Assembly (NCBI RefSeq): GCF_053078305.1
Contig: NZ_CP166879.1
DNA length: 64,000 bases
Direction: 5' to 3' (one strand)
Shown: positions 49,715-50,687 of the stretch, piece after piece
Layout of the letters: each line of letters starts with the position of its first letter
How positions within the stretch are numbered: position 1 is the first letter of the stretch
Made by a program: the position numbers and the translations under genes
The notes under the pieces: generated by a model
The model's input: only the letters and a program-made list of their open reading frames with translations
What the model was told of the DNA's origin: nothing
Databases searched by the model: none

Positions 49715-49999
49715 GAGTAAGATATGGGGTTTGGTCGTTGTTAATGAGCAGGACAATCATGACCGCCAACGACTAGATTCTTCCTTGGTTTATGTTGGTG
49801 CGCATAATGTATATTATGTTAAATCGTATCTGAGTGATACGAAGTGATTTTCCGGTAGTCGTTATTCGTTCAGGATTCCAGAACTTAAGCCTCTCCTCTT
49901 TCATAATTGGCCTGTGCATGCCGGATATAGGCTGGCTGGTATGCAGATTTGCCGTTTGCCGCATCTTCCCAGCGTTGAAGACTCAAGCTGGCAAACCGC

Positions 50000-50254
50000 G
50001 TGCAAATGAGCACACCCTCTTTCCATCAACACTTCAGGCAGCTTGCGGGAATGAGTCCACTCCGTTATCAGAAATGTCTACGTCTCAATGAAGTCAGGCG
50101 AACGATGCTGAATGAACATTACGATGTCACCCCAGCAGCCTATGCTGTCGGTTACGAAAGCTTATCCCATTTCAGCCGGGAATATTTGCGGATGTTTGGA
50201 GAGTCACCTAAGAGAGATATTACCAGGTTAAGAAAGTCTGTCGGTCAGCTTTAA
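50000..50254 (+). pseudogene. yneL: AraC-family regulator remnant (C-terminal HTH only)
   Basis: 84-aa ORF with AraC signature HTH region but no N-terminal domain; upstream frame broken. Confidence 0.7.
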
Positions 50255-50687
50255 TAAACCCTGCACTTATCTGTTTAGAGCAATTCGGTGTTAGTTACAT
50301 CAGGCAAACATTAACTATAGCTAATGATTTATAGCCATATAAACCATTAGTAGCCCTTGACCTTTCCTGACACTTCCCTTGTTCGCAATAATATTCTGTT
50401 TAGTCACGGTTTATAAATAACATGCATAATGAAATCGTCATGTTATTTAGCAACATAAAATGTTTTTGCAAATACTCTCTTCAACAAGTGCAGCAATAAA
50501 CTTGTTGTGATTAGGTGTCCTTGTGATTTAAAGATATCATCGTTCTTCGTGAAATGTAATAACCCTGGAAACTATATTCTCAGGGCAACAACCAATCAAG
50601 AATGATTCTTGTTTTATAAGCAATAACAGAATGACTTAATTGTTAACTCTCTTTATTCAGCTACTTAAATATAAATTTTGGAGAATT

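Follow-up and report, generated by a model that had tools for sequence, protein, structure and literature searches.

The yneL stub between dif and the f9 promoter of Escherichia coli: a probable remnant of a hydrolase-linked AraC_N-type regulator

AraC-type activators encoded beside fimbrial operons are a known arrangement. Another E. coli regulator, YqhC, is the activator of the divergently transcribed yqhD aldehyde reductase gene. In the replication terminus, XerCD/FtsK recombination is established in the literature for the K-12 dif site, whose sequence is identical to the one considered here. The K-12 dif is located in the hipA-yneL intergenic region (bioRxiv 10.1101/2025.09.02.673814), and yneL is listed as a pseudogene whose configuration differs by strain, including a fusion to the pilin gene in BL21 (PMC9308461). 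The F9 fimbrial operon has been studied in strain CFT073, where 5'-RACE places the transcription start at a G that lies 251 nt ahead of the start codon, behind a -10 element CATAAT and a -35 element TAGTCG separated by an 18-bp spacer (PMC3966885). In that strain H-NS binds a 251-bp f9 promoter fragment and an hns mutant is de-repressed; F9 expression is seen at 20 C, and H-NS represses it at 37 C (Wurpel et al. 2014, PMC3966885). None of the three features, the pseudogene yneL, the dif site and the f9 promoter under H-NS repression, is new, and what is added here is small: where yneL comes from, what the relics upstream of it are, and a sharp clustering of breakpoints at dif.

The window, a stretch of 64,000 nucleotides, is a segment of the E. 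coli chromosome from the replication terminus. The region studied within it is 99.9% identical to strain ES5 and 98.6% identical to an O157:H7 strain. The chaperone-usher operon to the right of the yneL stub is the F9 (yde) fimbrial operon; its pilin gene starts at 50688, not 50689, and the ES5, O157:H7 and CFT073 annotations call its product a fimA-type major subunit. The operon of the window is itself broken by a 651-bp deletion in the usher gene. We consider it very likely that the whole of this locus comprises dif, the decayed remains of a hydrolase-linked island, a non-functional yneL stub belonging to that island, and an independent f9 promoter (Table 1).

Table 1. Features of the dif-yneL-f9 region, with the colinear pieces of Enterobacter vonholyi locus L009
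Feature	Position in window	Strand	Basis or remark	Colinear piece (window = L009)
Large autotransporter gene	42495-47915			
hipB and hipA	hipA ends at 49714			
dif	49797..49824	+	28-bp XerC/XerD chromosome-dimer resolution site	49759-49826 = 5035-5102 (dif and left flank)
Relic of DUF2255 5' end with preceding spacer	49861..49905	-	blastn	49876-49905 = 6440-6469 (DUF2255 start)
Relic of alpha/beta-hydrolase, codons 220-239 of 359	49926..49986	-	tblastn and DNA identity	49926-49985 = 7379-7438 (hydrolase)
Deletion junction, hydrolase relic to regulator relic	49985..49986		head-to-head	
yneL relic	49985..50254	+	codons 216-304 and stop of a 304-aa AraC_N/HTH_18 regulator	49988-50256 = 10121-10389 (regulator)
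f9 promoter	50401..50437	+	consensus scan and published 5'-RACE in CFT073	
f9 operon 5' leader	50437..50687	+	251 nt, 30% GC	
GGAG ribosome-binding site of f9 leader	50680-83	+		
F9 major fimbrial subunit (pilin) gene	50688..51251	+	Pfam Fimbrial, E=6e-31	
Chaperone gene of chaperone-usher operon	51603-52322		followed by usher and ydeS/ydeR/ydeQ homologues	

The stub contains the C-terminal double helix-turn-helix domain of the AraC/XylS family. The ORF at 50000-50254 (84 aa, GTG start) matches Pfam HTH_18 with E=1.1e-19 and 70.9 bits (cut-off 33.6) over profile positions 6-76 of 80, as well as HTH_AraC with E=1e-6 and 29.2 bits (cut-off 26.6). The full relic corresponds to residues 216-304 of intact 304-aa orthologues, at 85-89% protein identity, and has lost all of AraC_N as well as the DNA-binding domain's helix 1 (YRIGKAIDWLKTNI), which is positioned ahead of the start of the HTH_18 model. 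NCBI annotations of ES5 and O157:H7 describe the equivalent of 49985-50254 as an incomplete helix-turn-helix domain-containing protein missing its N-terminus, and the K-12 annotation lists the same stub as the yneL pseudogene (b1506). No equivalog was reached in an NCBIfam search, every match falling far under its cut-off, and a PDB sequence search returned generic AraC DNA-binding domains only (best 3mn2, E=2e-8).

No N-terminal half of the regulator accompanies this domain. Stops close all three forward frames upstream of 49985, six-frame translation of the sequence upstream of the stub does not recover the missing half, and tblastn of a close orthologue's AraC_N domain against 47800-50800 detects no similarity (best E=1.3). 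Codons 216-304 are all that is left of the 304-codon frame. Because AraC_N similarity is absent, the window holds a relic of a member of the AraC_N plus HTH_18 group, not a member. The original prediction, that only the C-terminal HTH of an AraC-type regulator remains, is borne out, and the continuous full-length ORF that would have spoken against it was sought by re-translation and is not present upstream of 49985.

The same prediction took the broken frames upstream of the HTH domain (49834-50091) for further parts of the decayed regulator, and here it does not hold, as these letters carry the remains of other genes on the minus strand. The ORF at 49834-50091 is a mechanical one with no Pfam match. 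The minus strand from 49986 to 49927 encodes LSLQRWEDAANGKSAYQPAY, which is identical at 17 of 20 positions to MSLQRWEDAAKGKPAYQPAY, residues 220-239 of an alpha/beta-hydrolase (tblastn, E=7e-8 in a 3-kb search space). At the DNA level this relic is 82-95% identical to its orthologues in seven loci (blastn; L005 95%, L007 86%, L009 92%, L010 93%, L011 93%, L012 87%, L013 83%). Closer to dif, 49861-49905 is 82% identical to L005 5710-5754, and 49876-49905 is 93% identical to E. vonholyi L009 6440-6469 (blastn); both matches cross the point at which a DUF2255 ORF starts, and they keep the order of the remaining relics. Four DNA pieces in all run colinearly between the window and the E. vonholyi locus (Table 1). 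Since the frames match the hydrolase and DUF2255 relics, the ORF at 49834-50091 is the antisense of those relics plus an out-of-frame overlap with the stub. The peptide 'GYRLAGMQ...', set against 'GYRIGKAIDW' as a candidate for helix 1 in another frame, is likewise the antisense of the hydrolase relic. A terminator-like hairpin at 49824-49842 is assigned no role because neither K-12 nor other alleles conserve it.

The closest relatives of the stub were identified by an exhaustive HMMER search of representative sequences and a scan of one genome per species; a word-index protein search returned fragments of at most 162 aa only, the intact Enterobacter proteins not being among them. The closest full-length homologues (HMMER) are 300-320 aa long, with the HTH at the C-terminus, and combine HTH_18 with an N-terminal AraC_N domain (Pfam PF06719, E=1e-32 to 1e-53). 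E. coli YqhC has this architecture too. A DJ-1/PfpI N-terminal domain, suggested by the JGI name 'GlxA family with amidase domain' on some fragments, is rejected because the full-length homologues carry AraC_N. Intact 304-aa orthologues are found in Enterobacter vonholyi, E. mori, Enterobacter sp. MGH 24, Citrobacter youngae and Klebsiella michiganensis; the intact enterobacterial proteins are 92-95% identical to a less-decayed fragment (P0005). More distant intact orthologues occur in Pectobacterium, Pseudomonas and Variovorax. A further intact orthologue is WP_000622442.1 of E. coli T16R.

All five enterobacterial loci encode the regulator divergently from a 359-aa alpha/beta-hydrolase, and DUF2255 lies downstream of the hydrolase in three of the loci (L007, L009, L013). 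The divergent pairing with a homologous hydrolase, at most 3 kb upstream and on the opposite strand, is present in only 38 of the 80 homologous loci, the five enterobacterial ones among them, and is the arrangement from which regulatory control is deduced. By analogy with regulators divergent from the genes they control, the ancestral protein most likely controlled the hydrolase-DUF2255 operon; in C. youngae the stretch separating hydrolase and regulator is L010 9205-9472. An intact second copy of the regulator is present in 86 E. coli genomes, inside the argW/intS island, where it adjoins a hydrolase and a partial iron-containing alcohol dehydrogenase, a member of the family to which YqhD belongs.

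A deletion of about 1.57 kb joined the hydrolase relic to the regulator relic. The junction 49985/49986 reads ...GAAGACTCA/AGCTGGCAA..., the sequences on its two sides are separated by 1572 bp in C. youngae L010 (8546 and 10119), and it is common to all window-type E. coli alleles examined. We propose that an old island consisted of a 304-aa AraC_N/HTH_18 regulator divergent from an alpha/beta-hydrolase-DUF2255 operon, and that the Escherichia lineage lost this island piecemeal through successive deletions. The 1.57-kb deletion took the 5' halves of both genes together with their shared control region, so that codons 220-239 of the hydrolase, on the minus strand, came to be butted against codons 216-304 of the regulator, on the plus strand. 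Other E. coli strains keep different remains. CFT073 and muskdeer13-4 lack a regulator relic and have hydrolase residues 240-275 directly ahead of the f9 module; a shorter stub with an unrelated 111-bp filler is found in K-12 and most other strains; in BL21-type strains the stub is fused to the pilin (P0073); and WP8-S17-ESBL-12 keeps a 7.8-kb LysR...aldo-keto reductase...amidohydrolase...ABM-CMD block, syntenic with Enterobacter locus L007 at 92-94% identity and followed by the same relics.

The left-hand landmark of this region, dif (GGTGCGCATAATGTATATTATGTTAAAT), falls within the interval covered by the original prediction and was overlooked there. It is identical at 28 of 28 positions to the experimentally confirmed E. 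coli dif (PMC3025954), with an XerC arm and an XerD arm around a 6-bp central region, and occurs as a single copy in the window, in the terminus, and not at all in shuffled sequences. The same site is present in K-12, CFT073, Enterobacter vonholyi and Enterobacter sp. MGH 24, and with one mismatch in Citrobacter youngae. As dif adjoins the DUF2255/hydrolase/regulator island in Enterobacter and Citrobacter too, the neighbourhood of dif and the island is old. All four GGGNAGGG (KOPS) motifs converge on dif, two on the plus strand to its left and two on the minus strand to its right, and cumulative GC skew rises to about 50 kb and is then flat; four motifs and a noisy 64-kb skew profile are supportive only.

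Strain-to-strain structural variation starts exactly where dif ends, with the base that follows the XerD arm, and might suggest that the patchwork to its right arose by Xer-mediated gain and loss of modules (IMEX-like), with the yneL and hydrolase scraps left over. Three unrelated sequences start right after the XerD arm in different E. coli strains, and in WP8-S17-ESBL-12 the 7.8-kb LysR...CMD block is flanked by dif on one side and, in direct orientation, by a degenerate dif-like site (GGTGC..CAATTATGTATAT..GTTAAAT) on the other. The pseudo-site of L099 is at 20655-20706. The Enterobacter locus that is 92-94% identical to the block has the same pseudo-site, and the block occurs in about 520 of 5426 genomes. 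However, it contains no phage or recombinase genes, activity of the pseudo-site, interrupted by insertions of 6 and 14 nt, is unlikely, and a 7-bp GTTAAAT microhomology could yield the same junction. Moreover, deletions forced to spare dif would cluster at its edge as well, and the internal junction 49985/49986 has no dif-like sequence. We regard such an origin as unlikely, and likewise the more general proposal that in E. coli and its relatives the right flank of dif is a cassette site at which recombinase-less metabolic blocks, such as the 7.8-kb one, are gained or lost by XerCD-type recombination with a second dif-like site. If that proposal were correct, the yneL, hydrolase and DUF2255 scraps would be the debris of exchange and not of random deletion.

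The 433 bp right of the stub, at 50255-50687, have a GC content of 32.1%, compared with 48.2% for the whole window, which places them within the lowest 0.55% of 433-bp windows. An AT-rich stretch of roughly 430 bp in front of the pilin gene had been predicted, and this part stands; its description as poly-A/T does not, as it contains one A/T run of 5 and four of at least 4, against 2.5 and 7.4 in mononucleotide shuffles. With runs rarer than in shuffled sequence, poly-A/T is no real feature of the region. The stretch includes a predicted sigma-70 promoter with -35 TAGTCA (50401-06), an 18-bp spacer, -10 CATAAT (50425-30) and a G at 50437, the base obtained by counting the 251 nt of the CFT073 leader back from the pilin start (50688-251=50437). 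The CFT073 promoter has the same -10 element, spacing, start base and 251-nt leader and differs by a single mismatch in the -35 element (TAGTCG versus TAGTCA); the two strains are 95.8% identical from 50275 on and unrelated upstream of about 50275.

F9 transcription is accordingly predicted to initiate at the G at 50437 from TAGTCA-18-CATAAT, and H-NS acting on the AT-rich promoter and leader would silence F9 at 37 C. Silencing at this temperature in the present strain is suggested by the 95.8% identity to CFT073, and the AT-richness is as expected of an H-NS target, as for CFT073 f9. Since the window matches the mapped CFT073 promoter, the original interpretation of the region as an H-NS-silenced promoter is probably right, and it is already published for the CFT073 sequence (PMC3966885). 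An Rfam scan of 49000-51600 gave nothing credible, the f9 leader matching no family, and the fold of the 251-nt leader shows no structure beyond chance (z=-0.86).

Given this neighbour, yneL might be supposed to be a dedicated AraC-type activator of fimbriae, acting as Rns, CfaD or AggR do, that has decayed and whose broken N-terminal half lies just upstream. The stub points in the same direction as the f9 operon and ends 433 bp before the pilin gene, and one NCBI submitter named a fragment 'putative fimbrial operon transcriptional regulator' (P0083). However, the upstream frames match sequence of the opposite strand, from hydrolase and DUF2255 genes and from no AraC N-domain, and the orthologues belong to the AraC_N type and are linked to a hydrolase. 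A pilin or chaperone gene occurs within 10 kb in none of the 80 homologous loci, all of which are also without a match to hipA, so the orthologues show no conserved adjacency to a fimbrial operon. PDB and NCBIfam searches did not connect the stub specifically with proteins of the Rns, ToxT or AggR type. Furthermore, f9 is expressed and regulated in CFT073, which has no yneL relic, and at least 676 E. coli genomes have the f9 promoter module without the relic; the module is present in 4910 of 5426 complete genomes, compared with 4234 that have any piece of yneL and 1278 that have at least 80% of its length. Homology to the island stops 2-19 nt past the stop codon of the stub (50256-50273) and the f9 sequence shared with CFT073 starts at about 50275, indicating two separate, abutting modules. 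It is very unlikely that yneL is the remnant of a dedicated fimbrial activator, as had been predicted; probably it was never a fimbrial regulator, and the stub would adjoin the fimbrial operon by position only.

As the remnant of a hydrolase-linked regulator, the stub also has the marks of a pseudogene, with relaxed purifying selection and lineage-specific disruptions. Over its 89 codons, intact orthologues give dN/dS values of 0.03-0.15 among themselves, comparisons of E. coli with them 0.10-0.19, and E. coli alleles among themselves 0.28-1.17. In one contrast the ratio of non-synonymous to synonymous changes is 10:6 among E. coli alleles and 3:18 among intact orthologues (Fisher p=0.005); over such contrasts p is about 0.002-0.005, on small counts of 3-10 changes per class and with E. 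coli alleles that are non-independent samples. The window allele carries W246C and L255T at positions invariant in 80 of 80 homologues and A252V at a position conserved in 79 of 80, and K-12, STEC309 and 2022H048 have frameshifted or shorter alleles. Judged from these sequence comparisons, the stub appears to be a non-functional pseudogene under relaxed constraint. That it instead works as a small MarA/SoxS-like protein with two HTH motifs, starting at GTG 50000 or ATG 50006, is most improbable: the frame is open for 84-89 codons here and in about one quarter of E. coli genomes, both HTH motifs are kept and a microarray signal for yneL appears in a PeerJ survey (PMC9308461), but the seven-helix AraC DNA-binding domain is without its helix 1, neither start is preceded by a Shine-Dalgarno-like sequence, invariant residues are mutated and dN/dS is relaxed, most genomes have a shorter or frameshifted allele or none, and a 525-bp deletion including yneL in K-12 leaves cSDR-dependent growth, the one phenotype scored, unaffected, whereas a 114-bp deletion with dif, next to it, abolishes such growth (bioRxiv 10.1101/2025.09.02.673814).

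These results bear mainly on annotation. We found no statement of a hydrolase-linked origin of yneL in the yneL literature searched, and suggest that yneL be annotated as the stub of a hydrolase-linked AraC_N-type regulator, not to be read as fimbrial, and the sequence upstream of it as antisense relics of the partner genes of that regulator. Deletions or fusions designed in the yneL-f9 intergenic region should take into account that dif lies 160 bp upstream of the stub, its removal causing strong chromosome-segregation phenotypes (bioRxiv 10.1101/2025.09.02.673814), and that the AT-rich region is accounted for by the f9 promoter as mapped, together with the 251-nt leader. For fimbrial biology there is no new consequence. 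The clustering of breakpoints at the edge of dif offers a modest lead for work on Xer recombination and terminus plasticity.

Compared with known systems, dif of the window shares its sequence, its hipA-adjacent position and the polarity of the KOPS motifs with the E. coli dif/XerCD-FtsK site, and no difference was found. The stub occupies the same locus as yneL of K-12, between hipA/dif and the yde (F9) genes, and is the same AraC-type C-terminal relic, but the window allele is longer, with 89 codons compared with a 203-bp relic in K-12 that starts at the equivalent of about 50045-50051. The 111-bp filler of K-12 replaces window positions 49921-50044, and a 2628-bp deletion (50510-53137) has removed from K-12 the end of the leader, the pilin and chaperone genes and the 5' part of the usher gene.

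With activators of the Rns/CfaD/AggR type the stub shares its HTH domain of the AraC family and its location ahead of a chaperone-usher operon; in contrast to them, its orthologues carry an AraC_N sensor domain, which places them in a different subfamily, and have no conserved fimbrial synteny, and the relic is not required for f9. Unlike AraC_N plus HTH_18 regulators, the window copy has neither the AraC_N domain nor helix 1. Its intact orthologues resemble YqhC in their two-domain architecture, their length of about 300 aa and their divergence from an enzyme gene. The partner of the regulator in the window, however, is an alpha/beta-hydrolase with DUF2255, and not YqhD.

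The region at window 49715–50687 contains a canonical dif, the XerC/XerD chromosome-dimer resolution site, which carries no annotation in the RefSeq feature tables of K-12, ES5, and CFT073. The original prediction did not recognize this site, which lies inside that prediction's coordinates. At least three unrelated sequences, differing by E. coli strain, begin at the base directly after dif (window 49824/49825; L097 from CFT073, L094, and L099 from WP8-S17-ESBL-12). One of these, a 7.8-kb LysR...ABM-CMD block (L099 12925–20706) that is terminated by a degenerate dif-like site, is 92–94% identical to the Enterobacter locus L007 and is found in approximately 520 of the 5426 complete E. 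coli genomes scanned. The hipBA genes also vary among strains: in some, a deletion of 1608 bp has removed them apart from the final 61 nt of hipA (L002, NZ_CM188076, compared to window 48046–49653), and in O157:H7 and CFT073 hipA is a truncated pseudogene.

Part of the relics that follow dif is replaced in K-12 and most E. coli genomes: the equivalent of window 49921–50044, which holds the hydrolase relic and the yneL stub's first 20 codons, is occupied there by an unrelated 111-bp sequence (L089 6634–6744, minus strand, in K-12). The intact 304-aa regulator (WP_000622442.1) is present in 86 of the 5426 genomes, within a prophage-like island at tRNA-Arg/intS; it is accompanied there by a divergently oriented, partial gene for an iron-containing alcohol dehydrogenase and by the alpha/beta-hydrolase. 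In E. coli T16R (L098 6998–10442), this cassette is 93% identical to Citrobacter youngae genes, which suggests that it is mobile by horizontal transfer. In several Enterobacteriaceae assemblies the regulator ortholog is broken by a stop or frameshift between its AraC_N and HTH parts (L007 7946–8001; L003–L006), but some of these assemblies have many frameshifts, so the split is possibly a sequencing error.

Three further stretches of the window match the F9 control region in AT-richness. One of them is immediately upstream of an autotransporter gene.

dif and the additional AT-rich stretches of the window
Feature	Window position	Description
dif	49797–49824	Canonical, 28 bp; within 49715–50687
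AT-rich stretch	~41900–42570	GC ≤32% over 433 bp
AT-rich stretch	~13700–14150	GC ≤32% over 433 bp
AT-rich stretch	~60280–60820	GC ≤32% over 433 bp

Downstream of the control region, the F9 usher gene (window 52364–54364) lacks 651 bp relative to ES5 (corresponding to L001 11393–12043; junction at 53105/53106), and a stop codon occurs at the junction (53105–53107). Based on this loss and the stop, the F9 operon of the window strain is probably non-functional. The deletion in K-12 (window 50510–53137) is a separate event from that in the usher gene of the window strain, although its end is only 32 bp off.
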